The position numbers were made by a program, and so were the translations under genes. A model generated the notes under the pieces. That model worked only from the letters and a program-made list of their open reading frames with translations. It was not told the origin of the DNA and ran no database searches. This document shows positions 1,155 through 22,502 of a stretch of DNA of 26,171 bases, in pieces. The first letter of the stretch is position 1. Each line of letters opens with the position of its first letter. Source of the stretch: a virus (lineage: Duplodnaviria > Caudoviricetes); IMG/VR virus record IMGVR_UViG_3300010398_000038, positions 1 through 26,171 of that record; one strand, given 5' to 3'.

Positions 1155-1784
1155 ATGGCTCATCTCAACGGCCAAGCGCTGCAGACCTGGAACAAGGGCG
1201 ACAGCCTGACGGCTGACGCCCTGAACGGCAATTTTCAGATCATCGCCGACCGCCTCGAGCGGGTCATGGCGCAGGCGCTCTTGCCCGATGCGGCGAACAC
1301 CAATCTGCAGATGCGCATGCGCGCGATCGTCGAGCGGATCGGGCGCCTCGAAGACCTCACCGCGATGCATGCGCGGCAGCGCAACGAGCGCGAATGGGCG
1401 CCCTTAAGCCATGTCGGCGCGCTCGTCACCATGGTCAACGAGGTGAACCGCCGCTTTGAAGACGCCTGCCGGCGCATCGACGAGATGCACGCCGGCAAGG
1501 CGATCGAGCACGAGGATCTCGACCGCCGACTCCAGCGGCTCGAGCAGCAGCCGGATGCAGCACGAGAGGAGGACTTCGCCGCCCTCGCCCGTGACCACGA
1601 CCGGCTCGCTCTCAAAGAACATATGCTCCTCTCCCAGATCATCGCGCTCAGGGCAGAGGTGAGGATCCTGCGCGAATTGGCGATGGGTCACGATCGCGAG
1701 GCCAACCGCAAGGAATATGCCCCGCTAAGCACCGTCGCTCATCTCCTCGAGCGCATCATGAAGCTCGAAGCGCGCGATGGCTAA
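1155..1784 (+). CDS. Coiled-coil virion-associated protein with an internal duplication (210 aa)
   Basis: ATG at 1155; N-term 'WNKGDSLTADALNGNF' resembles tail-attachment motifs; heptad-rich. Confidence 0.65.
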   Translation: MAHLNGQALQTWNKGDSLTADALNGNFQIIADRLERVMAQALLPDAANTNLQMRMRAIVERIGRLEDLTAMHARQRNEREWAPLSHVGALVTMVNEVNRRFEDACRRIDEMHAGKAIEHEDLDRRLQRLEQQPDAAREEDFAALARDHDRLALKEHMLLSQIIALRAEVRILRELAMGHDREANRKEYAPLSTVAHLLERIMKLEARDG

Positions 1785-3240
1785 GCTCGCTCTTCACCAA
1801 GGCAGCTACAATGCGCGCTCGCCGATCGCCAACGCGCAAGTGTGCCTCAATCTCATTCCCGAGCCGAATCCCCCCGACGCGCCCTTCCCGGTGACGCACT
1901 ACCCCGGCCCGGGCCTTAAATTGTGGGGCGACCTCTCGGGCGCCTCGCCGGGCGCCACCGGCGGCGTGCGCGGTCTCTACGTCACCTCGTCCAACGCGGT
2001 CGTCGCCGTCATCGGCGTCGCGGTCTACACCCTCACCGTGGCGCAGCCGGGCCAGGCGGTCCTCGTCGGCAACATCGGTGGCCCGAGCAGCCAGCCGGTC
2101 GTCTCGATGTGCGACAACGGCACCACGCTCGTCATCGTCGACGGCAGCCCCAACGGCTGGATGGTGCCATTGGGCGCCCTCCTCACCCCGAACAGCCTTG
2201 TGCAGATCAACGACGCGGCCTTCTACGGCGCGAACCGGGTCGACTTCATCGATACCTTCCTCGTCTTCAACCAGCCCGGCACGGGGAATTTCTACACCAC
2301 GACCTCGAATGTCGTGACCCCGTTCGATCCCACTTATTTCGCGGCCAAGGAAGGCTGGAACGACCGCCTCGTGTGCTGCGCCTGCCTGCACGACAATATC
2401 TGGCTCCTCGGCAACCAGACCGTCGAAATCTGGTTCAACGCCGGCGGCGCGACCTTCCCCTTCGCGCGGATGCCGAACTCGATCCTGCAGCAGGGCTGCG
2501 CCGCGGTGTGCAGCCCGGTCGTTGCCGACAATGCGCTCTATTGGCTTAGCCAAGACCGCTGGGGGCACTCGATGATCATGCGCGGCGAGGGCTACGCCGC
2601 GCGCCGCATCAGCAACTTCGCGGTCGAGAACGAGTGGAACCAGTACCCTTACGTCACCGACTGTGTCGGCATGTCCTACCAGATCGCCGGCCACGAGATC
2701 GTCGCCTGGTATTTCCCGGCGGGCGGCGCCTGGTGGGCTTACGACGCCTCGACCCAGATGTGGCACAAGCGCACCTATGCCGGCACGACGCAGCCCTGGC
2801 TGCCGCTCACCTCGGCCTTCTTTGGCACTGTCGTCGGCGAAACGCCGTTCACCCCGGTTGTGCTGGCCGGCGACCGCAGCTCGGGGCGGATCTACGAAAT
2901 CGACCGCTCGACCTATACGGACAACGGCACCGCGATCACCCGCCAGCGCTCGTGGACGCACCTGCAGCAGGACGGCCAGCGCATCGCCTATCAGCGCTTT
3001 GCGCTGTCGATGGCGGGCAACCAATTGTCGCCCGACACGCTCGCGCTCGACTGGTCGGACGATGCCGGGTTCTCTTACGGCAGCGCGGTCAACCAGACGG
3101 CCAACAACCAGTCGAACGGCCAGTATCTGTGGCGCCGGCTCGGCTACGGGCGCGACCGCGTCTACCGCGCGACCTGGAGCGGAGCGGGCGAATTTGCCTT
3201 GAACGGGGCCTACAGCGACGGGACACCGCAGGGGACATGA
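1777..3240 (+). CDS. Packaged-DNA stabilisation / tail hub protein, P22 gp10-like
   Basis: 'LLGNQTVEIWFNAGGATFPFARMPNSILQQGCAA', 'WAYDASTQMWHKR', 'WSDDAG', 'WRRLG' motifs; 487 aa. Confidence 0.9.
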   Translation: MAKLALHQGSYNARSPIANAQVCLNLIPEPNPPDAPFPVTHYPGPGLKLWGDLSGASPGATGGVRGLYVTSSNAVVAVIGVAVYTLTVAQPGQAVLVGNIGGPSSQPVVSMCDNGTTLVIVDGSPNGWMVPLGALLTPNSLVQINDAAFYGANRVDFIDTFLVFNQPGTGNFYTTTSNVVTPFDPTYFAAKEGWNDRLVCCACLHDNIWLLGNQTVEIWFNAGGATFPFARMPNSILQQGCAAVCSPVVADNALYWLSQDRWGHSMIMRGEGYAARRISNFAVENEWNQYPYVTDCVGMSYQIAGHEIVAWYFPAGGAWWAYDASTQMWHKRTYAGTTQPWLPLTSAFFGTVVGETPFTPVVLAGDRSSGRIYEIDRSTYTDNGTAITRQRSWTHLQQDGQRIAYQRFALSMAGNQLSPDTLALDWSDDAGFSYGSAVNQTANNQSNGQYLWRRLGYGRDRVYRATWSGAGEFALNGAYSDGTPQGT

Positions 3241-3509
3241 TCGAGCGCTCGAAATCCCTCGACCGCCGGCTCGAAGCCGAATGCGTGCGCTACGCCGGCA
3301 GTCAGGCGGTGCTGGTCTTCTACAAGGGCACAAAACCGCTCGCCTGCGAGCTCGTCGCCGATGGCGAGCGGATCGAGATGAGCCAGGCACGCGAGCACAC
3401 CGTGCGCGCCTTCTATCAGGGGATCGCGCCCGAACTGCCGGCCGGCGCCGATTACTGGCGCCTCATCGACGCCGGCGGCAACGTCGTGATGCAGGGCGAC
3501 GCGACATGA
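3237..3509 (+). CDS. Hypothetical protein (90 aa, MIERSKSL...)
   Basis: ATGA overlaps at both ends; C-terminal part of track ORF 2634..3509. Confidence 0.65.
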   Translation: MIERSKSLDRRLEAECVRYAGSQAVLVFYKGTKPLACELVADGERIEMSQAREHTVRAFYQGIAPELPAGADYWRLIDAGGNVVMQGDAT

Positions 3510-3724
3510 GCAGCCCGCCGCCGCGCAGCGGCATCGGTGTTGTGCCGACTGCGAGCCACCGCTACGCGACGCAGGGCATGGTCAGTCCGACCGACCCGCC
3601 CTTTGTCGATCCGACAACCGGCATCATGACGCCGATCTCGTTTCGCTTTCTCCACGGTCTCTTCCAGCGTATCGCCAAAATCGAACAGGCGCTCACCAAC
3701 GCAGGGATCCCGATCCCGCCATGA
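3506..3724 (+). CDS. Small virion protein (72 aa) at the P22 gp26 position
   Basis: ATGA overlaps at both ends; 'PFVDPTTGIMTPISFRFLHGLFQRI' resembles small proteins that follow gp10-like genes. Confidence 0.6.
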   Translation: MSSPPPRSGIGVVPTASHRYATQGMVSPTDPPFVDPTTGIMTPISFRFLHGLFQRIAKIEQALTNAGIPIPP

Positions 3725-4284
3725 GATACTTCAATTCGGTCGGCACTTTCGACATGACGCCCTTGCAGCTGGCGCTGCAGGTCAACCCGCAGCTCTGGGA
3801 CGAGCACTGCTACCGCACGAGTTTCGAAGGCACGCCGTTTTTCGGCATGTCGGACATTCTGCTGCGCTACTCCCGTCCCGAGGTTCACCAGCAGACGTGC
3901 GATCCCGACGCCTGCATCGATTCGCTCGACCTGGTGAATTACCCGGCCTGGGCTCTTCTGCCGCAGTGCCACGACCTTGTCTTCAACCTGATGCGCGCCT
4001 TTCACGGCGTCGCCTTGGGGCGCGTCATCATCGCCCGCCTGCCGCCCGGCGGCGTCATCAAGCCGCACGCCGACGATTACGGAAAATACGCGCTGGCCGA
4101 GGGCGGCAAGCGCTTTCACGCCTGCATCTCGGCCGCGCCCGGCGTGCTCTTTCACTGCGGCGACGAGACGATCCAGATGCGCACGGGCGAGGTATACTGG
4201 TTCCGCCACACCGCAGTGCACAGCGCCGAGAACAACAGCGCCGACGAGCGCATTCACCTCCTCGTCGATCTGATAAGCGGCTGA
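3721..4284 (+). CDS. Aspartyl/asparaginyl beta-hydroxylase-family 2OG-Fe(II) oxygenase
   Basis: 'RVIIARLPPGGVIKPHAD' (HxD), 'GEVYWF...HSAENNSADERIHLLVD' (distal His and Arg). Confidence 0.88.
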   Translation: MRYFNSVGTFDMTPLQLALQVNPQLWDEHCYRTSFEGTPFFGMSDILLRYSRPEVHQQTCDPDACIDSLDLVNYPAWALLPQCHDLVFNLMRAFHGVALGRVIIARLPPGGVIKPHADDYGKYALAEGGKRFHACISAAPGVLFHCGDETIQMRTGEVYWFRHTAVHSAENNSADERIHLLVDLISG

Positions 4285-4289
4285 AGCCG

Positions 4290-4754
4290 ATGGAACACCT
4301 CTCGCTCCAGGTCGAGCCCTTCCGGGCCTTCTGCGAAGAGGTGCGCCCGCTCCTGCCGCAGCACTGGGAGGATCTCGCGCTCGACAAGGACAAGGTGCCG
4401 CTGGCTCCCGATTGGCAGCGCTACGCCCTGCTCGATGCGCAGGGCGCGCTCTCGGTTGTCACGGTGCGCGAGAAGGGGCGCCTCGTCGGCTATTCGATCA
4501 TGGTGGTGATGCCCGGCCTCCACTACGTGACCTGCCTCGAGGCGCGGATGGACATCTTCTGGCTGGCGCCCGAGGTGCGCGGCCGCATGGGCGGCCTCAG
4601 GCTCTTCCGTACGCACGAGCGTGAGCTCGCGCGGCGCGGTGTCAAGCGCATCTACGCCGGCTCGAAACTGCACAAGGATTCTTCGCGCCTGTTTCTCGCG
4701 ATGGGCTACAAGCCGGTCGAGCAGTGGTTTTCAAAATGGATCGCGGAGGACTGA
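4290..4754 (+). CDS. GNAT-family acetyltransferase (154 aa)
   Basis: 'GRLVGY...DIFWLAPEVRGRMGGLRL' acetyl-CoA motif A; 'LFLAMGYKPVE'. Confidence 0.85.
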   Translation: MEHLSLQVEPFRAFCEEVRPLLPQHWEDLALDKDKVPLAPDWQRYALLDAQGALSVVTVREKGRLVGYSIMVVMPGLHYVTCLEARMDIFWLAPEVRGRMGGLRLFRTHERELARRGVKRIYAGSKLHKDSSRLFLAMGYKPVEQWFSKWIAED

Positions 4755-4755
4755 G

Positions 4756-5616
4756 ATGGTAGCTGCGGCGGTCGTCGGCGGAAGTGCCATTTCCGGCATC
4801 GGTGGTCTCATCGGCTCTTCGCAGGCAGCTTCCGGCGCGCAGCAGGCGGCGGCAACCGAAGCTGCAGCGCAGGACCGCGCGACCCAGGCTCAGCTGCAGA
4901 TGCAGCAGAACGCCATCGCGCAGGAGCAATTGGGCTTCAGCGAAGCGCAGTTTTACCAGAACCCGTTCTGGGACACCGGGCTCGGCAATTATCTCGGGCT
5001 GTCGAAGGAAGTGGGTATCGGCGCCCTCGGCGCGCAGCCTTCCCTCACCGACATCACGCAGCTTCCCGGCTATTCGTTTACGTTGCAGCAAGGTCTTAAC
5101 GCGACGCAGAACGCTGCGGCGGCGCAGGGGCTGGGCGTTTCCGGCCCGGCGCTCAAAGGCGCCAGTACTTACGCCGAGAACCTCGCTAACACGTATTACA
5201 ACAACTACTTGCAGAACTATTGGACGAACCAGAACAACCGCTTCAACATGCTCTATAACCTCGCCGGTTTTGGCTCCGGCTCGGCCAATGCGCTGACCTC
5301 GGCCGCGGTCGGCGCCGGCAATACCGGGGCGCAGGCCTCGACCGCCGCGGGGGCGCAGATCGGCAGCACCATCGCCAACACCTCCGCCGGCATCGCCCAG
5401 GCGCAGCAGAGCGCGGCCAATCTGCAGGGCGCGGGAATTACCGGCGCCGGCTCCTCTCTCGGCAATGCGCTGACCTCGGCTGCGCTCCTCGGCGGCGGCT
5501 CGACACTCGGTGTCACGCAACCGACCGGCTACTCGGGATTGAATGCGGCGCAGGCAGCTGCGGTGAACAATCAGGGCTTTTATTTCAGCCCTGGCGCCTC
5601 TATCGGGACGGGGTAA
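4756..5616 (+). CDS. DNA ejection/pilot protein 1 (P22 gp7/gp20-like, 286 aa)
   Basis: GGAGG SD; G/A/Q-rich; hydrophobic N-term; 'LPGYSFTLQQG...AAAQG..SG.ALK' motif. Confidence 0.8.
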   Translation: MVAAAVVGGSAISGIGGLIGSSQAASGAQQAAATEAAAQDRATQAQLQMQQNAIAQEQLGFSEAQFYQNPFWDTGLGNYLGLSKEVGIGALGAQPSLTDITQLPGYSFTLQQGLNATQNAAAAQGLGVSGPALKGASTYAENLANTYYNNYLQNYWTNQNNRFNMLYNLAGFGSGSANALTSAAVGAGNTGAQASTAAGAQIGSTIANTSAGIAQAQQSAANLQGAGITGAGSSLGNALTSAALLGGGSTLGVTQPTGYSGLNAAQAAAVNNQGFYFSPGASIGTG

Positions 5617-5619
5617 GCC

Positions 5620-7614
5620 ATGGGCAGCAGCATCGATGTCTCCTCGACCGGGCAGCTCGTCAACCGGCTGCTCAATCCGCCCAACCCGATGGATCAGCTC
5701 GGCAAGACGATCGAGGGCGTCAACGCGCTGAAGAGCTTTCAGGCAAACCAGGCAAGCGCGGACGCGTACCGGCAGAGCGTCGATCCGCAGACGGGCGAAG
5801 TTGATCTCGGCAAGTACAAGGCAATCATGTCGCAAGGCCCGGGTGCCTGGAATTTCGGCCCGCAGACGCAGCAGGCGGGGCAGGCGGTCGGTGCCGTGGG
5901 GCAGGGCACGACGGCAGATGTCAACGCCAAGATGGCGCAGTTGGGTGCCATGGGGCAGTTGATGTATCCGCTGCTGAAAGCCGGCGCCGACAACAATAAC
6001 CAGATCGATCCCGCTGCGGTGCAGACGCAGCTCGACCGGGCGCACGCGGCGCATCTCGTCAGCGATCAGCAATATCAGGTGTGGTCCGGGCAACTGAAAG
6101 GCATGACCCCAGGCGATGCCTATGGTTTTGTGCTCGGCGCGAATATGGGAAATCAAGAAGCTTACCGGCAACTCGGCGGTAATGTGACTGGGATCAATAC
6201 CGGGCCGCAGACTGTCTTTAAACAGACCTCTCCGCTCGGCGCGCAGCCGCCGGCCAGTTCTACGACGCAGATGGGCCTCTCGCCCGAGGGCGCCTTGAAA
6301 CTGCAGTCCTACCTCGCCGAGCCTTACGACTACACCGACAAGAATGGCGTCGAGCACAGGGGCGGCACCAAGGCCGATTTCTATGCTTCTCTTGGTATCA
6401 ACCCGTTTAAAGCCTTTACCGACGGCACAGTGCCGGCTCCGGGAAGCCCCCCCGCAATCCCGCAGCCACCTGCACCGCCGCAGGGAGGCGGGGGCGGCTC
6501 AACGCCTGGTGCTGGCAATTGGGAGGTTCAGCACAACAACTTTGCCGGAATGCGCAATCCCAATGTTCCGGCGGCCGGCGGCCCAAACACCAATCCTGCC
6601 GGCTGGCAACAATTCGCAACGCCAGAGGAAGGCATCCAGGCAATCTCGAACCAACTCGACCGCTACGCGTCTGGCGCGACGACAGGGAAACCGCTCAACA
6701 CACTCAACGGCATCATCTCAACCTGGGCTCCCCCGAGTGAAAACAATACGGCACTCCTGATCCGTCGCGCCTCGCAGATCATGGGTGTTTCGCCCGATCA
6801 GCCGCTCGACCTTGCCAACCCACAGGTCAAGGCCAAGCTCGTCGAGGCGATGATCCGCAACGAGCAAGGCGGCGCCCTGCCGCCGGCGGCGGCTGCTGCG
6901 ATTCCCAAGGTATTCCCAGCCGAGGGCGCGATATCGCAGGGAAGGGCGACGACTGGCGCGACTGAGGCAGTTCCTGCAGCGGTCGCCAAAGATAGTGGAG
7001 AACAGTTCAAAGCGGCCCGTGCGAACGCGACACAGTTCGAGGCACGGACCTCGGGACTCAGTCAGGCGCTCGGTCTCTTGCGGCAGAACGAGAACCTAAG
7101 CACCGGGCCAGGTACCCAAGACCTGCAGAACCTTCAAGGCATCGCCAATGCCTGGGGGATCGATCTGCCAAAGGCGATGAAGGACAGCAACACCGCTTTT
7201 TCCGAGATCAACAAAGACCTTGAGCGCTACTACATGACATTGCCCGGCGCGCAGCGCAGCGACCTTGCGCAGGCCGAGCAGAAGATGGCGAACCCCAGCG
7301 CGCAGACCCAACAGCGCGAAGCGTTGGATGACCTCATTACTCGCACGATCGGCCTAGAGCGGATGAACAACGCCGCTTACCTGAACTTCGAGCAGGCGCA
7401 CGGGCGGCAGGCCAGCATCTACGCACCGCAATATGCGGATGAGAGCGCGCAATACATGCAGAACCTTGATCCGGTTGGCTTTGCTTTCAATCTGATGACG
7501 CCAGCCGAGCGCACCACTTACCGAAATAGTCTCAAGGGTTCGGCACTCGCCAACTATTACAAGTCGATCAAGGAGGCGAGCCGCCTTTACAACCTACCGA
7601 TTGCGGGGGAATGA
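5620..7614 (+). CDS. DNA ejection protein 2 with an internal lysozyme-like (muralytic) domain
   Basis: 'HNNFAGMR...FATPEEGIQA...L.RY...TLNGIISTWAPPSENNT...AMIRNEQG' after a Pro/Gly linker; position in the ejection module. Confidence 0.75.
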   Translation: MGSSIDVSSTGQLVNRLLNPPNPMDQLGKTIEGVNALKSFQANQASADAYRQSVDPQTGEVDLGKYKAIMSQGPGAWNFGPQTQQAGQAVGAVGQGTTADVNAKMAQLGAMGQLMYPLLKAGADNNNQIDPAAVQTQLDRAHAAHLVSDQQYQVWSGQLKGMTPGDAYGFVLGANMGNQEAYRQLGGNVTGINTGPQTVFKQTSPLGAQPPASSTTQMGLSPEGALKLQSYLAEPYDYTDKNGVEHRGGTKADFYASLGINPFKAFTDGTVPAPGSPPAIPQPPAPPQGGGGGSTPGAGNWEVQHNNFAGMRNPNVPAAGGPNTNPAGWQQFATPEEGIQAISNQLDRYASGATTGKPLNTLNGIISTWAPPSENNTALLIRRASQIMGVSPDQPLDLANPQVKAKLVEAMIRNEQGGALPPAAAAAIPKVFPAEGAISQGRATTGATEAVPAAVAKDSGEQFKAARANATQFEARTSGLSQALGLLRQNENLSTGPGTQDLQNLQGIANAWGIDLPKAMKDSNTAFSEINKDLERYYMTLPGAQRSDLAQAEQKMANPSAQTQQREALDDLITRTIGLERMNNAAYLNFEQAHGRQASIYAPQYADESAQYMQNLDPVGFAFNLMTPAERTTYRNSLKGSALANYYKSIKEASRLYNLPIAGE

Positions 7615-7615
7615 G

Positions 7616-9298
7616 ATGGCGGATTCGCCGCCCCTGACAGACGAGGAAATGCGGGCGCTCTTTGGCGACGGCAACGCGCCGGCTGCGCCTGCCTCGTCGG
7701 CGCTGCCTGCAGCTCCATCGCCACTGACGCCGGAACAGGAGAGAACACTTTTCCCACCAGCGGCGGCAGCGCCGGCAAAGCCGCCAGGTGTGACGCCTGC
7801 AGACGCGCTGGAGGCATTCCAGGCCGGAACGCTGCAGGGCATGGGCAATGTCGCGGGCGGTATCCAGCGCCTCTTCGGCTACGATCCGAGCCTGACTGAC
7901 CGCACCAATGCGCTGCTGACGCCTGAGCAAAAGGCCGGCATGGCGGCGCATCCCTGGGCGGCGGGCGGCGGTCGCATCCTCGGCGAGACCGCGGCAACCG
8001 CGCCGGTGATGATTGTGGGCGGCGAGCTGCTGCCGACCTTTGGCGCGGCTTCGGTGCCGGCTCTGGTCGCCCGCGGCGGCCTCTATGGCGCCGCATCTGG
8101 TGCCCTAGGAAACATGCTGACCTCGGGCGGCGCACCGGATGAGAGCCTCGGACACCGCGCGCTCACTGGCGCGGAATGGGGTTTGCCGTTCGGTATGCTC
8201 GGCGGCTACGCCGAGGCTGCTACCGGTGCGGGACAGAAGGTTTCGGAAGCGACGCAGGCCGCAGGCAAGGAAATGCAGGAGGCTGGTGTCGATGTTGCGC
8301 CTGGCAATCTGCCGCGTATTGGCGGCACCAAGGCGGGCGGGCCGCCGACCGATGCACAGGCAGTTCAGATCAACAAGGCATTCGGCAACATCATCGGCCA
8401 GGACACACCTAATTTTTCCTCGGATACGCTCAATAAGGTAATCCCCGATCTCGGCAAGGATGTCGGCAATACGGTTCGCGCCGGCAAGATCGACTACGAT
8501 ATCCCGACCAGCAGCGGGCAGACTTTCGAGGATCGGCTCGCCGATATCGAGGCCAACACTGACCGCCGACAAGTCAAAAACATCATCAACAAGATTGTTC
8601 AGAAGGTTGATGCCAGCGGTGAAATTTCTGGAGCCGATCTCGGCGATCTCCTGAAGACTAATAACCCGCTCGATAGTGCGACGCGCAGCCGCGTACCGGA
8701 GATTTCCGAGCCGGCGATCGAGATCGAGCAGGCTATCCACGACGCGTTTACGCAATCGTCATCGCCCGCCATATCGCAGGCTTACAGCCTGGCGCGTGAG
8801 AAATACAAGCTTGCCTTGGCTGGCGAGCAGGCTGCCGATCCGGTCTCGGGCAACATCGATCCTTCGCGGATCATGCAGGTTTTCACGCGGATGTATCCCG
8901 ACGCGAAACGCATCGGTTCGGGTACATCGATGACTGACCAAGCGGTTAATTTTGCGCGCAATACTGCGCGCACTTTCGGCGGCACTGCGAGTGCATCACC
9001 GGTCTACAGTCACGGCGGCTGGCTGGCACCGATTGCGACAACAGCGGTCGGTGCGGCTGAAATGGCGCCGCATGTCGTCCCGTTTGCATTGCCTCAAACC
9101 CTTAGCAATCCCCTCATGGCCGGCACGATGCTCGCAGCGCCGTTCGCCATGCGCGGCATTCGGGAATTAGGGCATGCGTATCAAGGGACGCCGAGCTTTG
9201 CTAACGCTCTTCTGGCGCGCGGCCCGCAGGTCGGTGGTCCTTATCTGTCGACATTGGGGGCCGATGTGGGCGCCTCGATTGGGGATCAGCTCCGATGA
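7616..9298 (+). CDS. DNA ejection protein 3 (560 aa)
   Basis: A/G-rich with glycine-zipper-like segments ('GGLYGAASGALG'); last gene of the ejection cluster. Confidence 0.7.
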   Translation: MADSPPLTDEEMRALFGDGNAPAAPASSALPAAPSPLTPEQERTLFPPAAAAPAKPPGVTPADALEAFQAGTLQGMGNVAGGIQRLFGYDPSLTDRTNALLTPEQKAGMAAHPWAAGGGRILGETAATAPVMIVGGELLPTFGAASVPALVARGGLYGAASGALGNMLTSGGAPDESLGHRALTGAEWGLPFGMLGGYAEAATGAGQKVSEATQAAGKEMQEAGVDVAPGNLPRIGGTKAGGPPTDAQAVQINKAFGNIIGQDTPNFSSDTLNKVIPDLGKDVGNTVRAGKIDYDIPTSSGQTFEDRLADIEANTDRRQVKNIINKIVQKVDASGEISGADLGDLLKTNNPLDSATRSRVPEISEPAIEIEQAIHDAFTQSSSPAISQAYSLAREKYKLALAGEQAADPVSGNIDPSRIMQVFTRMYPDAKRIGSGTSMTDQAVNFARNTARTFGGTASASPVYSHGGWLAPIATTAVGAAEMAPHVVPFALPQTLSNPLMAGTMLAAPFAMRGIRELGHAYQGTPSFANALLARGPQVGGPYLSTLGADVGASIGDQLR

Positions 9299-9531
9299 AG
9301 CCTTCGGCGCAGCAATCGTACAATCCCCAGGCTGATGTTGACGCCCAAAAAGGCAATGATCCCGCCAATAATAACCTGGCCGGCTATCTCGGGATTGACG
9401 GCGCTGTTGAACCAAGGAAGGGCCGCGCCATAGATCATGAACAGCGCTGGAAACCACACACCTTCCGCGCCGTACATCGAGCCCATCAGCACGAACCAAA
9501 GAACCAGTCCGGCAATCCAGATAACAATCAT
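9286..9531 (-). CDS. Array ORF F: small integral membrane protein (about 3 TM, 81 aa)
   Basis: Highly hydrophobic with a basic C-tail; starts 3 nt (GCG) after the previous stop. Confidence 0.65.
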   Translation of the reverse strand: MIVIWIAGLVLWFVLMGSMYGAEGVWFPALFMIYGAALPWFNSAVNPEIAGQVIIGGIIAFLGVNISLGIVRLLRRRLHRS

Positions 9532-9534
9532 CGC

Positions 9535-9765
9535 TTAGATCCACTTAAAGCCGTGAGCCATCGTGGCGAGCATCCCGCCAAAGCCTGCGAGCATGATGGT
9601 CAGCACGATGTAGAATTGCCGGTCCTGGCGCGTAATAAGCAGCCGAAAGTCTTCGCGCAGATCCTTGCGCAGGCCGCCGATTTCGCTGCGAAGTTCTCGA
9701 ATATCCTCGCGGAAATCCTGACGCAGACCACGCAGTTCGCTCACCAGGTCGTTTGTGTCCGCCAT
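9535..9765 (-). CDS. Array ORF E: coiled coil plus C-terminal TM (76 aa, ends MAHGFKWI)
   Basis: Internal repeat LRGLRQDFREDIR/IGGLRKDLREDFR; hydrophobic tail; AGGAG SD within the linker. Confidence 0.8.
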   Translation of the reverse strand: MADTNDLVSELRGLRQDFREDIRELRSEIGGLRKDLREDFRLLITRQDRQFYIVLTIMLAGFGGMLATMAHGFKWI

Positions 9766-9777
9766 CGCTCAGCGCTC

Positions 9778-9882
9778 CTAACCCAATGCGCCGACTTTGG
9801 CGGCAACCCGCAGCAGCAGGAACAGCGCGAGCGTGCCTTCCGCGATAATCGCACCGAAACATATCATTCCGAATGTGTGCAT
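9778..9882 (-). CDS. Array ORF D: 34-aa single-TM peptide MHTFGMICFGAIIAEGTLALFLLLRVAAKVGALG
   Basis: Translated by hand (below the ORF-track cutoff); bounded by two exact linker copies. Confidence 0.65.
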   Translation of the reverse strand: MHTFGMICFGAIIAEGTLALFLLLRVAAKVGALG

Positions 9883-9885
9883 CGC

Positions 9886-10134
9886 TCAGCGCTCCTCGAG
9901 CAATGTGCGGATTGCCCGCAGGTCTTCGCGCATCTCGCGGGTGTCCTCGCGAACCTCGATGCGGAAGCGGTCGAACTGGCTGCGCAGCGCCCGCAATTCG
10001 ACAGCGATGTTGCTGATCGACGTGTCGTGCCGCTCGAGCATCGATATCATCACCGTGCGGTCATCGCGCATGTCAGCCAGCTCGCGCTGAATTTCACGCA
10101 ACAGCCGCTCCGTCGCGCTCACTGTGTCGCTCAT
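9886..10134 (-). CDS. Array ORF C: soluble coiled-coil protein (82 aa)
   Basis: Heptad pattern; ends LEER within the linker. Confidence 0.8.
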   Translation of the reverse strand: MSDTVSATERLLREIQRELADMRDDRTVMISMLERHDTSISNIAVELRALRSQFDRFRIEVREDTREMREDLRAIRTLLEER

Positions 10135-10137
10135 CGC

Positions 10138-10368
10138 TCAACCTCGGCTGGCGTTGATCGCCGCGGCAATCGCCGCCACCTGGGCGCCGACCTCGGCCCG
10201 CTGCGCGCGGAACTCCTCGGCCAGGTCATGGCGCAGTCCGGTGAACCCGCTGTCGATCTTTACCTCAAGTCGGCGGATTTCGCTGAACAGCAACACAAAG
10301 CCGCCGATGACAAACGCGGCGAAGATGCCAAAGCTGGCGGTGAAGACGGTTACAAGGTCGGCGCTCAT
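10138..10368 (-). CDS. Array ORF B: N-terminal TM plus coiled coil (76 aa)
   Basis: Hydrophobic 'VFTASFGIFAAFVIGGFVLLF' followed by heptads; GAGGAG SD within the linker. Confidence 0.8.
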   Translation of the reverse strand: MSADLVTVFTASFGIFAAFVIGGFVLLFSEIRRLEVKIDSGFTGLRHDLAEEFRAQRAEVGAQVAAIAAAINASRG

Positions 10369-10371
10369 CGC

Positions 10372-10614
10372 TCAGCGCTCCTCCTCGACCAGATCGAGAC
10401 GGCGCTCGATGCGCCCAAGGCGCAATTCGATGCGGTCCATCCGCACCGAGAGCATCGCAAAATCATCGTGCAGATTGGCGACTTCGCGCTCAAGGCGCCC
10501 GGTGCGCTGCTTCAAATCAGCAATATCGGTTCTGATCTCGGCAAGCTGCGTGTCGACGCGGTTAAACCGCTCTCGCAGGTAATCGAGGACATTGATAGGA
10601 TTTTCGGTAGCCAT
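10372..10614 (-). CDS. Array ORF A: soluble coiled-coil protein (80 aa)
   Basis: 'MDRIELRLGRIERRLDLVEEER' heptads; AAAGGGA upstream; first gene of the array. Confidence 0.8.
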   Translation of the reverse strand: MATENPINVLDYLRERFNRVDTQLAEIRTDIADLKQRTGRLEREVANLHDDFAMLSVRMDRIELRLGRIERRLDLVEEER

Positions 10615-10684
10615 AGCAGAGCTCGTCCCTTTGCTTGGTCAGGAGCGGGAGCGGTGTTTGCGCACCCTCCCGTCTCCGCATTTT
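10607..10684 (+). ncRNA. Candidate cis-antisense RNA, SymR/ptaRNA1-like, covering the start codon and leader of array ORF A
   Basis: Extended -10 TG-A-TAGGAT at 10593-10601; begins GTAGCCAT (anti-start codon); GGTCAG, then hairpin 10642-10677 with a GGTGTTTGCGCACC apex, then TTTT. Confidence 0.55.
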
Positions 10685-10708
10685 AGCGGAGTCGCCGATG
10701 CCTGACGA
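10680..10708 (-). promoter_or_regulatory. Candidate sigma70 promoter for the small-ORF array
   Basis: Minus strand TCGTCA (10708-10703), 17 bp, TAAAAT (10685-10680); the -10 is flanked by inverted repeat CTCCGC/GCGGAG. Confidence 0.5.
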
Positions 10709-10880
10709 GATAATAACGATACCCCTTCCGGCGAGCGATTGGCCGACGATCCAGGCCGGGCTGCTCGAGCTGCCGGGAAAATTCGGCATCCCCGTCATCA
10801 ACCGGCTGAACCAGGCGCTCGCCGAGGCGCAGAAACCAGCGGAAGACACCGTAATGCCGATCCGCGGGAGCAAAGGCTGA
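10698..10880 (+). CDS. Small hypothetical late protein (60 aa, MPDEIITIPL...)
   Basis: GGAG SD 6 nt upstream; 'LLELPGKFGIPVINRL' resembles small tail-associated phage proteins. Confidence 0.65.
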   Translation: MPDEIITIPLPASDWPTIQAGLLELPGKFGIPVINRLNQALAEAQKPAEDTVMPIRGSKG

Positions 10881-10882
10881 TG

Positions 10883-11752
10883 CTAATCGGGGCGCAGAAA
10901 CACGCCTCTCATTTTGTCGACATACGCGAGCCACGCAGCGTGCGCTTCTTCCGGCGTGTCATAGGTGCCGATGTAAACAAGCTTTCGTTTCCCAAGAGAA
11001 GCGCGCGCCATGAAACGACCTGGACTGCGCTGACTTGGGACAACGCCGCGTGGCAGCTTACCCGTATGGCGACGATTCCACTGGTTCTGTTGGTTGGTTG
11101 TCTCTCGCAGGTTTTCCCAACGGTTATCTGCGGGATTGCCGTTTTTGTGATCGATAGCTTCCGTTGGCCATTTGCCGGTCTGCATGACCCAAATCAGACG
11201 ATGTGCGGTAAATTGGCCGCTATTTACGAGAAGGCGAATATGGCCATCGCGGTTAGGCAGTCCCGCCGCTCTGCCGGCCCATCGCGTGTTCCAGACGCGT
11301 TGCGCTTTCTCGTTCTTAAAATGGTGCAATGGCCGGAATTTCCAAATCAGTATTCCAACGGTTGGCTCATATGCGAAGCATTCATGCAAATACGCAGCGC
11401 TAGGCCGCGGCAATTTATTTCTCGGATTTGGATTGTCTTGAGGACGTTGCAGGTTGTCCCATCGGTTATCCGATATGTCTCCGTTCTTGTGTTCAACGAC
11501 CTTTGCCCGCGTGCCGGTTTGCATAATCCAAATCAAACTATGCCCAGTGAAGATGTGTCCATTTACGTGCACCCGGCTTTTACCATCGCGTTGAAGCAGA
11601 CCGACGGTTTTGCCGGCCCATCGCTTATTCCAACAGCGCTGGGTTGCCGTATCCTTAAAATGATCCAGCGGACGCGCTTTCCATTTGAGAACGCCAGTCT
11701 CGTGATCATACGAAAAACACTCACACAAGTAAGCTTGTGAAGGGGGCAACAT
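10883..11752 (-). CDS. HNH homing endonuclease with two tandem HNH modules and a C-terminal AP2-like domain
   Basis: 'EHKNGDISDNRWDNL' and 'DHKNGNPADNRWENL'; 'YIGTYDTPEEAHAAW' AP2 motif; lower GC than the flanks. Confidence 0.88.
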   Translation of the reverse strand: MLPPSQAYLCECFSYDHETGVLKWKARPLDHFKDTATQRCWNKRWAGKTVGLLQRDGKSRVHVNGHIFTGHSLIWIMQTGTRAKVVEHKNGDISDNRWDNLQRPQDNPNPRNKLPRPSAAYLHECFAYEPTVGILIWKFRPLHHFKNEKAQRVWNTRWAGRAAGLPNRDGHIRLLVNSGQFTAHRLIWVMQTGKWPTEAIDHKNGNPADNRWENLRETTNQQNQWNRRHTGKLPRGVVPSQRSPGRFMARASLGKRKLVYIGTYDTPEEAHAAWLAYVDKMRGVFLRPD

Positions 11753-13832
11753 GGGCTCACCGATACCAACACAGACGCCGCAAGGCGCTGTTGTTGCTCT
11801 AGGAATTCCAAATTCTCAGGATTATCCCAGACTTGTTCTGACAAGTCCATACTTTGAAGGGGTGCCGCTCGCCGAATTGATCGAGCCGAGCGTCATCGAG
11901 GCGGTGAACAACGTGCTGCCATCGCTCGTCCCGCCCTATGTCGACCAGGCGGCGCAAGCCGCAGTACAGCAATTAGCCGTGCTGCTCACCGGCTCGACGA
12001 TGACGGGGCCGCTCTTCCTCAATCCCTTGATGCCTACGGCTGATGCTCAAGCTGCAACTAAAGCGTATGTTGATACGATGCTTGCAACCGCCGGTATCCC
12101 CGAGGTGCCCCCGGTTCCATCCGGCCAGGTCTGGGGCCGCGAGACCGGGCAGTGGGTGCCGATCAGCCAGACCGGCGGCACCTTCCTGCCGCTGACCGGC
12201 GGCACGATGCAGGGCAACATCGCGATGTCCGGCAACACCATCACCAACATGGCGGCGGTGCCGGCGATGCCCAACGGCGCTGCACCCGCGCAGTGGGTGC
12301 TGAACCAGATCGCCAGCGTCTCGCTCTATCAAGGCACCTGGAACGCCGACACCAACGTACCCGACCTGACGCAGCTCAGCACTCACGTCAACGGCTACAC
12401 ATGGTTCGCACTGACGACGAGCCCCTCGGGCGTCGTCATCGGCGCCGCGATCCCGGGCCTCCAGGGCACCACCGTCTTCAATGGCGATACGATTATCTAC
12501 AGCACGGTCGCCGGGGCCTTTCAGGCGATCCATGCCGGCGGTCTGACCCTGGCCGAAGCCGATGGGCGCTATGTCCAGCTCGCCGGGTCGCAAATGTCCG
12601 GTGCGCTGCTCTTGAACGCCAACGCCAGCCAACCGCTGCAGGCCGTCACACTTCAGCAGCTCGACGCTGCGGTCGCCAATACCGTCACCCCCGACGCCCC
12701 GGCTGACGGCCAGGCGTATCTGCGGGTCGGGGTCGGCGCTCCCGCTGCCCGCTGGGTGCCCGGTCTGCCGCTCGCCGGCGGCATCCTCACCGGGTCGCTG
12801 ACGCTCGCGGCAAATGCCGCAACCGCGCTGCAGGCGGTGCCGCTGCAGCAGATGAACAGCGCCATCACCGCAGCGACCGCAGGGTTCCTGCCGCTTGCCG
12901 GCGGCGCGATGACCGGACTCTTCACCCTCTCGGGCAATGCCACGGCAAACCTCAACCCGGTACCGCTGCAGCAGGTGACGGGAATGCTGGCGACCTATGC
13001 GCCCTTGGCAAATCCCGCCTTTAGCGGCGTGCCCACGGTGCCGCTTGCCGCTCCTGGCACCAATACCGGGCAAGCTGCTTCGACCGCCTTTGTGCAGGCC
13101 GCGACGGGGAACTATCTCCCGCTTTCGGGTGGGACGCTGACCGGGGCGCTTGTCCTGCCAAACGGCACCTCTGCCGCGCCCGCGCTCAATTTTGCCGGCA
13201 ATGGCGGGTTCTACGTCAGCTCCCCGAACCTCGTTGCTTTCACCCAATCGCTCAATGTCGCTGGGTCGGTCAGCGCCACCGCGGGGGTAAACGGAGGCCC
13301 GGGCACCATTGGCGGCGTTATTCTCAACACAAACGTCACCCTGCCGGCGAACGGCGCGCTGATTTTTCACACAAGTCAGATTTCCTCGATCATTTTCGAT
13401 ACGAACTATTCGCTGCAATATCGCAACACCGACGGCACCTGGCATTTCATCTCGCCGACCGGCAATGCGATGTCGCTCGACTTTGCCGGCAACATGACAG
13501 TCAACAGCCTGACCCAGACAAGCGATGAGCGGACAAAAGGCAACATCGCCGCTTATGCGCCGGGAGTAAGCATCATCGGCCAATTAATGCCCAAGACATT
13601 CACTTACAACAGCGACACCGCCTCGCCTCAGGTGATGCACCTGGGGTTCATGGCGCAGGACGTGCAGCCGGTGTTGCCCGAGGCCGTGTCGGGCAGTCTC
13701 GACACGATGCTCGGGCTGGACACGACACCTGTCATTGCGGCCCTGGTCAATGCTGTAAAGCAACTGATCAGCCGCATTCAGGCGCTTGAATCGAACGCCA
13801 ACATCACTCCCAGCGCGGCAGAAACAGCATGA
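11751..13832 (+). CDS. Tail fibre/spike with a C-terminal peptidase S74 intramolecular chaperone
   Basis: Repeated 'LPL.GG.(M/L)TG.L.L' shaft motifs, 'ATKAYVD', 'ASTAFV'; 'SDERTK...LGFMAQDVQPVLPEAV' plus a terminal coiled coil. Confidence 0.88.
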   Translation: MGSPIPTQTPQGAVVALGIPNSQDYPRLVLTSPYFEGVPLAELIEPSVIEAVNNVLPSLVPPYVDQAAQAAVQQLAVLLTGSTMTGPLFLNPLMPTADAQAATKAYVDTMLATAGIPEVPPVPSGQVWGRETGQWVPISQTGGTFLPLTGGTMQGNIAMSGNTITNMAAVPAMPNGAAPAQWVLNQIASVSLYQGTWNADTNVPDLTQLSTHVNGYTWFALTTSPSGVVIGAAIPGLQGTTVFNGDTIIYSTVAGAFQAIHAGGLTLAEADGRYVQLAGSQMSGALLLNANASQPLQAVTLQQLDAAVANTVTPDAPADGQAYLRVGVGAPAARWVPGLPLAGGILTGSLTLAANAATALQAVPLQQMNSAITAATAGFLPLAGGAMTGLFTLSGNATANLNPVPLQQVTGMLATYAPLANPAFSGVPTVPLAAPGTNTGQAASTAFVQAATGNYLPLSGGTLTGALVLPNGTSAAPALNFAGNGGFYVSSPNLVAFTQSLNVAGSVSATAGVNGGPGTIGGVILNTNVTLPANGALIFHTSQISSIIFDTNYSLQYRNTDGTWHFISPTGNAMSLDFAGNMTVNSLTQTSDERTKGNIAAYAPGVSIIGQLMPKTFTYNSDTASPQVMHLGFMAQDVQPVLPEAVSGSLDTMLGLDTTPVIAALVNAVKQLISRIQALESNANITPSAAETA

Positions 13833-14811: not shown

Positions 14812-15624
14812 CTATTTAATGCGTTTGGTGGTGAAGAGTTGCGGAATGAACCATCGCTCTTCCGGCCAACCGAGCCGGATGCGGGCATGAACTACGCTAT
14901 ACGCGACCCCGCTTCTTTCCGCTGCTTCTGCCAACGCCATGCGGGTACCTTGATACGTGACAAACCGACTATCGCTCTTGTTTCTCGCTTGCTCGGTCAT
15001 GGTTGCCCATCGGCAATTTTCCGGGCCGTAGCCCTTGTCGTTATCGATGCGCTCAAGTGCCGAGTGTGGCGGTCTCCTGCCCATATCGGCAAGGAAGTTT
15101 TCAAACGCGAGCCATTGCTCGCAGACCTTGATGCCGCGGCCACCATAGCGCGCAAAGCTATTGTTATTTGGATTGCCACAGCGTGCCAGCATTGCGCGCC
15201 ACACATCGTATTCGACCATGTGCTTACCGCCGCGCGTCGCGCCGTGCGTCGTTTTGATTTTGGCCGTAACCTCAGCTCGCCTGCATCCGCAACTTTGCGT
15301 ATGGCCGGCAGACAATGTCCAGCTCACCACATTGCGTTCCGTGCCACATTCGCACTTGCACCTCCAAAATGTACCACCCTTGCCGAGGTGCGATTTCTCA
15401 ATAACGCGCCAACGACCAAAAATTTGACCCGTAAGATCTTCGCTTTTCAGGCACCCGCAGCTTCGTACGCGACCTTGACGCAACCTGTCGCCGCGTGTGG
15501 TGCATTGATTGCCGCATTGGCATTGGCAAAGCCAAAACGAACGCTCGCTTCCTGGCTTGTAGACCCGATCAAGTACGGTCAAGCGTCCGAACGTTTGACC
15601 GGAAATATCTATGGAGCGATCCAT
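14812..15624 (-). CDS. HNH-type homing endonuclease with duplicated CxCxCG...SCGC N-terminal repeats
   Basis: 'YGGRGIKVC..W..FENFLADMG', 'ERIDNDKGYGPENCRWAT..EQARN'; start chosen at MDRSIDISGQ (alternative 15648). Confidence 0.85.
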   Translation of the reverse strand: MDRSIDISGQTFGRLTVLDRVYKPGSERSFWLCQCQCGNQCTTRGDRLRQGRVRSCGCLKSEDLTGQIFGRWRVIEKSHLGKGGTFWRCKCECGTERNVVSWTLSAGHTQSCGCRRAEVTAKIKTTHGATRGGKHMVEYDVWRAMLARCGNPNNNSFARYGGRGIKVCEQWLAFENFLADMGRRPPHSALERIDNDKGYGPENCRWATMTEQARNKSDSRFVTYQGTRMALAEAAERSGVAYSVVHARIRLGWPEERWFIPQLFTTKRIK

Positions 15625-16162
15625 GCCCGACACTGTGTTTGACACCATAATGTCGATTGTTATAGGTCATGAGGGCGGCTATGTCGATAACGCGTCCGAC
15701 CCCGGGGGAAGGACAAAATACGGTATTTCGCAAAGGTCCTATCCTGACGTGGATATCGCCCAACTGAGCCTTGAGGGGGCGAAGGCGATCTACAAGCGGG
15801 ATTATTTTGATCGCCTCTCGCTCGATGTAGCAGACCCCGGGCTCGCCCTCGTGGCGTTCGATGCCGCCGTCAATAATGGTGTAGGTCAAGCTGCGCGCTG
15901 GCTGCAGGCGGCGCTTGGGGTTGCTGTGGATGGCGTTATCGGCAATCAGACAAAGGCGGCTCTTGCGGCTTGCACTGGCGATAAGGCGCAAGAAGTGCTC
16001 ACCGCGATGCATGCCGCGCGCATCTACATGATGGCAAATTTGAGCACCTGGCAGACTTTCGGTCGGGGATGGTCGAAGCGTCTCGCGCAGATCCCGTACC
16101 AAGCTGCAGGCCTGACCAACAACGACACGCCGACGGCGACCGACCAGCCGCCAGCGGGATAA
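15623..16162 (+). CDS. Endolysin, glycoside hydrolase family 108, with a peptidoglycan-binding region
   Basis: 'HEGGYVD...DPGGRTKYGIS', 'FDAAVNNG', 'VDGVIGNQT', 'FGRGW..R'; GGAG SD. Confidence 0.92.
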   Translation: MPDTVFDTIMSIVIGHEGGYVDNASDPGGRTKYGISQRSYPDVDIAQLSLEGAKAIYKRDYFDRLSLDVADPGLALVAFDAAVNNGVGQAARWLQAALGVAVDGVIGNQTKAALAACTGDKAQEVLTAMHAARIYMMANLSTWQTFGRGWSKRLAQIPYQAAGLTNNDTPTATDQPPAG

Positions 16163-17100: not shown

Positions 17101-17285
17101 TCCCCACATTCTCCCCACGTTTTCCCCACAACGAGGGGCATTTTGAGGCCTGTTGTTCCTGTTTCTGTCTTTGTAAGTCATTGAAGTTATTGATTATAGG
17201 TGGCCCGGAGATGCCCAATTACGGGTGTGTCTTTCATGCTCTGTCAATAGCTTACGAAGCTCTCCCCACGATTTTAGCGTGGGGA
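17101..17285. other. Putative attP: arm-type repeats, IHF-like sites and a core
   Basis: TCCCCAC at 17101, 17112 and 17123 (11-bp period) and 17263, inverted at 17279-17285; TAAGTCATTGA and TCAATAGCTTA IHF-like sites; AT-rich; at the 3' end of int. Confidence 0.75.
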
Positions 17286-18250
17286 AGCTTGACGCGGTTG
17301 ATCGCGCCGCGAACCATCTCGACATCGGCTTTCTGATATCTGAGCGACATCATCGGAGTCGTATGACCCAAGGTCTGCATGATCGCCTTCAAGGGTTCGC
17401 GGTTGAGAGCCATCATCGTTCCCAGCGTGTGCCTCGCCATATGGGCGGTGAAATAGATGCCGGTCCTCGCGTTTAGCTTTTGCAGCGCGCGATAGAACTG
17501 GGAATAGTTGGTGTAGGGAAACACCTTGCCGTCGCCCTTGGGTCCTAAGAGGGCGATGAAGTCGTCGTGGATCGCGAAGGTTTCCCATCGCTCGCCCTTG
17601 GCGTTGAACAGCCTGAAGGTGAACCGCTTGAGGTCGATCTGATCCCAGGTCAGATCCAAGGTCTTGCGGATGCGCGTGCCGTGCAGGAAGAGAAATTTCA
17701 ACAGCCGGTACATTTGGGGATCGGCGGCGGAAATCACCTCGGCGGCCGTGTCGGCATCGAGTGCGCGCGGTTGCGGCTCCGGTTCCTTGAATGTCTTGAC
17801 CCGTATCCAGTGGTCCCACAGTTCAGCGTGATAGGCATAGTGCAGCACGCTGATGATCGGGCGCATGATATTGCGGTTGCGCGACTGTGGTTCTAGCCGG
17901 GCGCCGATCTCGTTGGCGACGGCATGAATGTCGGTTCCCTTGATCTCCCGGAAATTGCGCTGGCCGATGACCGCAATCACCCTCTCAAGCCGTCGCCGAT
18001 CCTCGCGAGTGGGGTTGCGGAACTCGATATAGCGTCGCGCCAGTTGCTCAAAGGTTATGATTCCTCGGGAGCCGATGGCCTGCGCGACGGCTCGTTGGAT
18101 GTCCGCTTCCAGTTCTTTCTTACGTCGCTCAGCAGCCTTTTGGTCTGTCGTGTCCGTGCTGATCTCGTAAAGCTGCCCGGCAATGCGACCACGTGCGAGG
18201 AAGAACTTATTGCCCTTGCGTTGACCCGGAGCGATGAGGTGGAGCGGCAT
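17252..18250 (-). CDS. int: Tyrosine integrase
   Basis: Catalytic R (HGTRI), HxxR (HMARHT), LGH and Y (SLRY). Confidence 0.93.
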   Translation of the reverse strand: MPLHLIAPGQRKGNKFFLARGRIAGQLYEISTDTTDQKAAERRKKELEADIQRAVAQAIGSRGIITFEQLARRYIEFRNPTREDRRRLERVIAVIGQRNFREIKGTDIHAVANEIGARLEPQSRNRNIMRPIISVLHYAYHAELWDHWIRVKTFKEPEPQPRALDADTAAEVISAADPQMYRLLKFLFLHGTRIRKTLDLTWDQIDLKRFTFRLFNAKGERWETFAIHDDFIALLGPKGDGKVFPYTNYSQFYRALQKLNARTGIYFTAHMARHTLGTMMALNREPLKAIMQTLGHTTPMMSLRYQKADVEMVRGAINRVKLPHAKIVGRAS

Positions 18251-22052: not shown

Positions 22053-22409
22053 CTACGTTGGCTCGGACTCCAGCTCGATCTCGTTTCGAGCCTTGACGGC
22101 CTCGGCGATGAACTCCGCAAGGCGCTGTTGCTGGAGGATGCTCATGCGCCGGAACGCGAGGATCAGCTGCACTTCGCGTTCGACTGAGATTGTCAGGACG
22201 CGTCCCATTCCGGCGCTGGTGCCCTGAAGGTATTCCATTGATACGCCGCACAGACCGGCGATTTTAGCGAGGTTGTCGCGCCCCGGTTTCTTTTTGTGGC
22301 TTTCCCATTGGCCGACCAGGCCACGGCTCACGCCGAGCGCTGTCGCAAAGACTTGTTGCGACGTATATCCCGCTGCGATGCGGGCGCGGGCGATGCGGTT
22401 GCCGATCAT
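22053..22409 (-). CDS. cI: CI-like XRE/HTH repressor with no S24 peptidase domain (118 aa)
   Basis: 'IARARIAAGYTSQQVFATALGVSRGLVGQWES...P'; divergent from cro. Confidence 0.85.
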   Translation of the reverse strand: MIGNRIARARIAAGYTSQQVFATALGVSRGLVGQWESHKKKPGRDNLAKIAGLCGVSMEYLQGTSAGMGRVLTISVEREVQLILAFRRMSILQQQRLAEFIAEAVKARNEIELESEPT

Positions 22410-22449
22410 CGTCACTCGTCGAAGCTTACCGACAACACGTATTTTTTTG

Positions 22450-22502
22450 GGTAAGCGATTGCCTACCAGCTTGCTTGCCATGCGTGCCTACTCGTGGTAA
22501 GC
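22450..22502. promoter_or_regulatory. Candidate rightward operators between cI and cro
   Basis: GGTAAGC-N4-GCCTACC (22450-22467) and GCCTAC-N5-GTAAGC (22486-22502). Confidence 0.6.

Follow-up and report, generated by a model that had tools for sequence, protein, structure and literature searches.

Positions 10593-10684 (+) of the 26,171-nt virus record analysed here (the window, by which we mean the whole of that stretch) are probably the gene for a cis-antisense RNA of about 75 nt, which would hold down translation of ORF A, the first of six small ORFs on the opposite strand. Comparison of the sequences places this element in a family with at least 87 members, found in phage contigs, on plasmids and in alphaproteobacterial chromosomes. 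By the same comparison the family is distantly SymR-like, and no curated RNA family was matched at its threshold. The layout seen in the window is not the product of chance, as is evident from the 87 copies, the covariation, the strand bias and the positioned -10 box.

The gene layout of the record is that of a temperate P22-like phage. The element lies in a minus-strand block that separates the last ejection protein gene from the tail fibre gene and holds an endonuclease gene, a short plus-strand ORF and the six small ORFs. In P22, the region between the ejection proteins and the tail fibre is a spot for accessory genes. A blastn search with positions 9200-11000 of the window against cultured phage records gave no match, and a tRNA search found nothing. 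The endonuclease gene adjoins the array, begins with ATGCTA and is without a copy of the antisense element; many of the comparable endonucleases in other contigs have one. A gene for a cupin of the Asp/Asn beta-hydroxylase-like type (Pfam PF05118, 53.8 bits) stands at 3721-4284 (+), amid the virion and ejection genes. The features needed in the following are listed here by position.

1777-9298 (+): head-closure and ejection proteins, from family and profile matches
9286-9531 (-): ORF E
9535-9765 (-): ORF D
9778-9882 (-): ORF C', 34 aa
9886-10134 (-): ORF C
10138-10368 (-): ORF B
10372-10614 (-): ORF A, 80 aa, a coiled coil and the putative direct target, with its ATG and Shine-Dalgarno sequence under the predicted RNA
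10593-10601 (+): extended -10 TGaTAGGAT (TG 10593-10594, TAGGAT 10596-10601), read from the sequence, inside codons 5-7 of ORF A
10607-10614 (+): GTAGCCAT, in which CAT (10612-10614) is the complement of the ORF A ATG
10609-10684 (+): predicted antisense RNA, about 72-76 nt, from the covariance model and the alignment with SymR
10610-10639 (+): stem-loop 1, from folding, GCCA/UGGU plus AGCAGAG/CUUUGCU
10636-10643 (+): TGGTCAGG (UGGUCAGG in RNA letters), which contains GGTCAG, closes stem-loop 1 and opens stem-loop 2
10642-10677 (+): stem-loop 2, GC-rich and terminator-like, GGAG-CGGGAG-C-GGTG / TTTGCG / CACC-CTCCCG-T-CTCC
10678-10684 (+): GCAUUUU tail with a weak U tract, GCA and then TTTT
10680-10708 (-): promoter-like site for the array mRNA, TCGTCA, 17 nt, TAAAAT; weak (1 site found, 0.5 expected)
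10698-10880 (+): 60-aa ORF (MPDEIITIPLP...), 13 nt past the RNA tail, with its own GGAG
10883-11752 (-): HNH/AP2 endonuclease, two HNH_3 stretches plus AP2
10889-10918 (+): terminator-like hairpin and T run, 3' of the 60-aa ORF
11751-13832 (+): tail fibre gene
15611-16162 (+): endolysin gene
17252-18250 (-): integrase gene
22053-22481 (-): CI-type repressor gene

Anatomy of the element

An earlier sequence-only reading had proposed that an extended -10 opposite the first codons of ORF A starts an RNA at GTAGCCAT, antisense to the ORF A ATG. Both parts are present, CAT lying within ORF A, and a read-out of 10593-10684 (+) found all the letters in their places. If the annotated 5' A of the AGUCAU of SymR is taken as a guide, the RNA would begin with A10609, and its 3' end would fall within GCAUUUU. 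GGTCAG followed by a long hairpin, also described in that reading, was found as well. The TTTT that it placed after the hairpin is there too; GCA separates the run from the stem, and the run is short.

Stem-loop 1 had been overlooked. It is formed by GCCA (10610-13) pairing with TGGT (10636-39) and AGCAGAG (10615-21) with CTTTGCT (10629-35), and its loop CUCGUCC is complementary to the Shine-Dalgarno sequence of ORF A (GGACGAG in the mRNA). In stem-loop 2 the unpaired C and T make two offset bulges. The predicted fold of the plus-strand RNA has an energy of -39 kcal/mol and a z-score of -3.98, equalled or bettered by none of 200 shuffled sequences; for the minus strand of the same stretch the z-score is -3.09.

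The family and its targets

With ORF A as the query we found two viral contigs, L002 and L003, which have the same leader with different stem letters, and the 60-aa ORF led to near and distant relatives (L092, L093, L095, L100, L113-L115). Common to the ten copies found first are, on the plus strand, a -10-like box, 6-7 nt, AGCCAT, 21-25 nt including an anti-Shine-Dalgarno sequence, TGGTCAGG, a hairpin of 30-34 nt and CCGC; the letters of the hairpin stem differ from copy to copy. Four of these relatives (L114, L115, L092 and L095) encode a different protein behind the ATG, the first codons of which still give TGnTAGGGT, TGnTAGGAT or TGnTATGAT on the opposite strand. The homology between the window and L113 ends exactly at AGCCAT. 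L003 has a second site at 2700-2760, where GATATAAAGC, a short GC hairpin, AAGGAG and ATG precede another small gene.

A collection of viral contigs was scanned with the pattern AGCCAT-N18-30-TGGTCAGG-N28-40-CCGC. This gave at least 120 stretches from 8 of the 64 parts of the collection, and the program's estimate for the whole was about 1000. The scan and the earlier loci together made 126 distinct matches, 87 of them with a strong hairpin, defined as a folding energy of -17 kcal/mol or lower on the better strand; the other 39 were used as chance-like controls. Scaled up from one eighth of the collection, the hairpin-bearing copies would number roughly several hundred. As the pattern was derived from the window's own group and the copies were also picked by hairpin energy, the method itself accounts for the fixed letters and for some of the pairing percentage given below. 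Nothing in the scan pattern prescribes the hairpin, stem-loop 1, the promoter box or the tail.

The fold was assessed in an alignment of 86 sequences (A3), from which L145 was omitted for lack of flank. Seven of the nine basal pairs of stem-loop 2 vary, each with both sides changed in 29-44 of the 86 sequences; covariation of the hairpin among homologues, whose absence the sequence-only reading would have counted against its proposal, therefore exists. The cells changed on both sides numbered 233, compared with 82 after shuffling (none of 500 shuffles as high). The proportion of stem-loop 2 cells that were paired was 94.6%, against 72.8% after shuffling (again 0/500 as high) and 27-49% with slid partners; the selection by hairpin energy inflates this percentage, and does not affect the register beside the anchors or the slid controls.

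The two strands are not equivalent in this family. Of the 87 copies, 69 have the more stable stem-loop 2 on the plus strand and 18 have it on the minus strand, and among the 30 weakest matches the plus strand is the more stable in 10 and the minus strand in 18. In 84 copies the plus-strand folds contain 146 G:U pairs and the minus-strand folds 37, a count which is biased because these 84 were chosen on the plus strand. Stem-loop 1 has a mean z-score of -2.6 across the family (below -1 in 80/86) and is more stable on the plus strand in 83/86, partly through the fixed G:U of GCCA/UGGU. In 58 of 86 copies an anti-Shine-Dalgarno-like tetramer stays mostly unpaired.

A TAnnnT box is found 5-8 nt upstream of AGCCAT in 48 of the 87 copies and in one of the 39 controls; at offsets of 6-24 nt from there the count falls to 0-3 of the 87. 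The longer box, TGn plus TAnnnT, was counted in 18/87 copies versus 0. On the other side of the hairpin, the first and second bases past CCGC are T in 50 and 60 of 86 sequences, respectively, and the next five are enriched in T; the seven nucleotides past CCGC contain on average 3.29 T, against 1.79 in the controls and 1.53 further downstream. The U tract is absent in L092 and L095. Since it is weak, and missing in these two relatives, termination may be poor, and for a tail so weak as an intrinsic terminator read-through is likely. The window has all the features of the family: the -10 box 5-8 nt upstream of AGCCAU, stem-loop 1 with the anti-Shine-Dalgarno loop, UGGUCAGG, stem-loop 2, CCGC and the T-rich tail.

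Copies were also found outside the viral collection. A blastn search of plasmids with a family member returned short hits only, one of which led to a copy on the Enterobacter cloacae plasmid pCY-VIM. This copy scored 43.5 bits with R1, a covariance model built from A3, carries UGGUUAGG and covers the beginning of the gene that opens a transfer operon. R1 also found three copies in two of the five alphaproteobacterial genomes searched. In a Methylobacterium genome (L239/L241, G003:C1:1603312-1604926) two copies on one strand are separated by 1.5 kb, and each covers the start of its own ORF beginning with MAT.

The proteins encoded behind the element are of many kinds. Among the 71 target ORFs of at least 40 aa, 20 have nuclease or homing-endonuclease domains, and most of the others belong to no family; 14 additional targets are shorter than 40 aa. 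The nuclease targets comprise HNH_3 (10), HNH (3), endonuclease VII (2), GIY-YIG (2, one of them below the Pfam cutoff), AP2 alone (1), NUMOD4 alone (1) and DUF559/REase (1). Because the targets are so diverse, we regard the element as a general head-piece of accessory or selfish genes and not as the marker of a toxin. In one viral contig (L133) positions 276-530 hold a group I intron that exceeds the cutoff of its Rfam model (RF00028) with 87.6 bits, about 1 kb from a copy of the element.

Likeness to SymR and other antisense RNAs

The sequence-only reading had likened the element to SymR and ptaRNA1 and suggested a comparison with Rfam. A search of 701 nt of the window (10300-11000) at E<=10 gave no hit to symR, PtaRNA1, R1162 or sar. 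When a 98-nt stretch was scanned, symR (RF01809) matched over its full length on the plus strand with 16.6 bits (E 0.31), below its cutoff of 61, and Plasmid_R1162 (RF00043) matched on the minus strand, also with 16.6 bits and below its cutoff of 55; PtaRNA1 (RF01811, cutoff 47) had no hit at E<=10 in either scan. With no hit at a gathering score, formal membership of the window element in any Rfam family is unsupported.

The relatives score higher. In 17 of 40 family loci a full-length, sub-threshold Rfam hit fell on the element, the best scores being 44.2 bits for symR, 42.5 for Plasmid_R1162, 29.2 for PtaRNA1 (its lowest being 20.1) and 30.3 for asX6. The commonest of these sub-threshold matches is Plasmid_R1162, which matches in the sense orientation; symR, PtaRNA1 and asX6 match in the antisense one. 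In Rfam these are four separate families, joined by no clan.

The comparison was also made with our own models. R1 scored the window at 55.4 bits. A second model, R2, was built from 72 copies, leaving out the window, its nine relatives and the doubtful rows L169, L187, L211 and L232; it found the window element at 10607-10687 (+) with 46.6 bits (E 9e-12), the next best hit having 13.1 bits. On 8 kb of E. coli K-12 (L237), R1 picked out SymR at 3834-3919 (annotated at 3836-3912) with 21.1 bits, the next best being 6.8, and R2 gave 25.3 bits at the same place. UGGUUAGG of pCY-VIM and UGAUUAGC of SymR align to UGGUCAGG. Of the likeness claimed by the sequence-only reading, the SymR half holds, with models that match in both directions at sub-threshold scores; PtaRNA1 fits some of the relatives, not the window. 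The SymR-type layout that it described is borne out: the promoter in the first codons of the target, the AGCCAU start, the covered ATG and Shine-Dalgarno sequence and the long hairpin at the end.

Two papers (Kawano 2007, PMC1891008; PMC4147584) describe SymR as an RNA of 77 nt that lies across from the 5' end of symE, has its promoter within the symE reading frame and represses the synthesis of SymE. The window element shares with it the antisense position over the 5' end of the target and a promoter inside the target's coding sequence. It also shares an AGYCAU start over the start codon, a first stem closed by GYCA/UGRU, and UGRUYAG followed by a GC-rich hairpin topped by GUGUU..GCAC. The differences concern target and host: SymE has the AbrB fold, and the window target is a coiled coil at the head of six phage ORFs; SymR belongs to the E. 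coli chromosome, and the window element to an uncultured temperate phage.

The R1162/RSF1010-type RNA is likewise a 75-nt element, and it covers the ribosome site of its target together with the AUGGCU start. The N-terminus of that target, RepA (MAT..), resembles the MATENPIN of ORF A. Unlike the window element, the R1162 RNA has a replication gene and the copy number of the plasmid under its control, and its Rfam model matches in the sense orientation. Another small antisense RNA over a ribosome site, the sar RNA of phage P22, belongs to immI, between the ejection-protein genes and the tail spike; it resembles our element by general description and genomic place only. PtaRNA1 and asX6 are, similarly, small antisense RNAs of mobile elements with full-length, sub-threshold matches on the relatives, but PtaRNA1 is directed at a predicted membrane toxin and asX6 at a plasmid gene, and their models gave no hit on the window. 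asX6 (RF02239; PMC3300014) is a 93-nt RNA seen in Northern blots, antisense to XCVd0099 of the Xanthomonas plasmid pXCV183, and long read-through forms of it were reported.

The likeness to SymR, R1162 and PtaRNA1 may reflect common descent or a design that was found repeatedly, and sub-threshold scores cannot distinguish the two. A search of a limited literature collection found no paper linking the symR, R1162, PtaRNA1 and asX6 families or describing phage members. SymR-type cis-antisense RNAs are usually viewed as rare, narrowly distributed curiosities; our comparison suggests that one architecture connects symR, Plasmid_R1162, PtaRNA1 and asX6 and extends to a large group below all Rfam thresholds. 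As a tentative generalization, which may well prove too broad, we propose that the RNA gene, the target leader and the first codons form one portable control cassette, which would share a superfamily with SymR, PtaRNA1, asX6 and the copy-control RNA of IncQ. This cassette would be set by phages and plasmids before unrelated risky genes (homing endonucleases, accessory arrays, replication and transfer operons), with the RNA body AGCCAU...UGGUCAGG as the joint at which genes are swapped. If the RNA is made, this offers a simple, testable rule for how temperate phages silence accessory and selfish genes, and the covariance model of the family gives annotators a means to find the element.

Possible action and alternative readings

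If the RNA acts as SymR does, its promoter in codons 5-7 of ORF A would be constitutive and would start it at about A10609, loop 1 (CUCGUCC) would make the first contact with GGACGAG of the mRNA, and a duplex of about 65 nt would then hide the ribosome site and the ATG and block the ribosome, in the way published for SymR. The loss of ORF A translation could lower expression of the five downstream ORFs. What points to this is the form of the junctions: four of the five read stop-GCG-ATG, and the fifth, between C' and D, is TAG followed by 12 nt. Because the stop-GCG-ATG junctions are tight, it is plausible that one RNA gates all six ORFs, as the sequence-only reading had suggested. The array (9286-10614) looks like a tandemly built series of translationally coupled coiled-coil and membrane proteins. 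A sequence ending in GAGGAGCGCTGA at the array junctions yields both the EER end of one protein and the Shine-Dalgarno sequence of the next, and the C'-D junction keeps a relic of an EER-type end after an earlier TAG.

The sequence-only reading had gone further and seen in the array a polycistronic switch of the type I toxin-antitoxin kind that fires when host transcription is disturbed, serving abortive infection or prophage addiction. In such a switch the array would encode toxic membrane proteins, released when the unstable RNA decays. ORFs B to E, including C', are coiled-coil and/or membrane proteins, and hydrophobic segments occur in four of the six ORFs, which would suit such a switch, as would the accessory-gene spot known from P22 and the classification of SymR and PtaRNA1 as antitoxins in Rfam. 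The four ORFs with hydrophobic segments are, however, all downstream ones (B, C', D and E); the direct target, ORF A, is a charged, soluble coiled coil and not the usual small hydrophobic protein. A comparison of ORFs A-E with protein family models gave no match to a toxin, holin or defence family, and the same RNA heads nucleases, unassigned proteins and a plasmid transfer operon. With no toxin signal, a soluble first protein and such diverse family targets, we consider the switch rather unlikely, unsupported except by the Rfam labels of distant relatives, and do not follow the earlier reading on this point. The array was also considered as a lysis cassette, which was rejected because the endolysin gene is located elsewhere (15611-16162).

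The antisense reading leaves a place for the 60-aa ORF. This ORF is kept behind the element in the aligned relatives L091, L092, L093, L095, L113, L114 and L115 (alignment A4). The tail is weak, the conserved ORF begins 13 nt downstream and a terminator-like site follows it, and for these reasons the ORF is likely to be fed by read-through of the antisense RNA's terminator; such read-through would reach it at 10698. The predicted model of the protein (pLDDT 71) has an extended N-terminus and two helices; a Foldseek search of the PDB found no fold match, and there was no family match. By eye the protein gave the impression of a ribbon-helix-helix repressor, which we do not claim, Foldseek having returned nothing from the PDB.

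The same facts could be read in another way, with the plus-strand transcript as a mere leader of the 60-aa ORF mRNA, the hairpin as an attenuator and the overlap with ORF A as a by-product of divergent promoters. The ORF's own GGAG, its conservation, the terminator-like site behind it and the weak U tract all agree with this, as do the long read-through forms reported for the relative asX6 (PMC3300014). Across the 87 copies, however, no particular ORF stands 3' of the element on the same strand, whereas the anti-Shine-Dalgarno loop and the overlap with the start of the opposite gene are general in the family, and the studied relative, SymR, is described in PMC1891008 as an antisense repressor. 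We therefore hold it unlikely that the transcript is a leader and nothing else; the leader and antisense readings are not mutually exclusive.

The fold might instead act on the sense strand, as a structure in the 5' leader of the array mRNA that affects stability or the display of the ribosome site, and an antisense RNA would then be unnecessary. The minus strand folds too, 18 of the 87 hairpins fold better there than on the plus strand, which speaks against the antisense reading, and the Rfam match to Plasmid_R1162 is in the sense orientation. There is also the promoter-like site just upstream, which would begin the mRNA inside stem-loop 2 and give an overlap of about 65 nt with the antisense RNA; close relatives have TATAAT where the sense -10 of the window reads TAAAAT. 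This array promoter is nevertheless a weak match to the consensus, and its -10 is not conserved in the family as a whole. As a conserved feature the sense-strand -10 was rejected, most copies reading TT after CCGC and not ATTATA. The G:U pairs and the folding energies favour the plus strand, and it is on the plus strand that the positioned -10 box and the T tail are found, which makes a purely sense-strand role very unlikely. That the element is a site in the DNA, either a joint for recombination or an operator whose inverted repeat serves the 60-aa protein, would accord with the inverted repeat in a divergent control region and with the break of the window-L113 homology at AGCCAT, but is highly improbable given that the stem letters vary freely with compensation, that G:T is tolerated on one strand only and that neither the fold search nor the family search matched the 60-aa protein.

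The antisense RNA is no regular companion of the ORF A family. A search of Pfam, PHROGs and NCBIfam gave ORF A weak matches of the coiled-coil type only and none to the SymE family (AbrB fold), and its homologues are small proteins without names. At the 80 loci found in bacterial genomes these homologues mostly have housekeeping genes as neighbours and lack the antisense element; model R1 detected no copy at 14 such loci, and it is from this that the independence of RNA and protein follows. Homologues with the C-terminal RIERRLDLVE are common in Alphaproteobacteria (loci L011-L090), and many of them, in a reading of the upstream translations by eye, lie directly 3' of the end of a nuoF-like or ATP-synthase-gamma-like gene.
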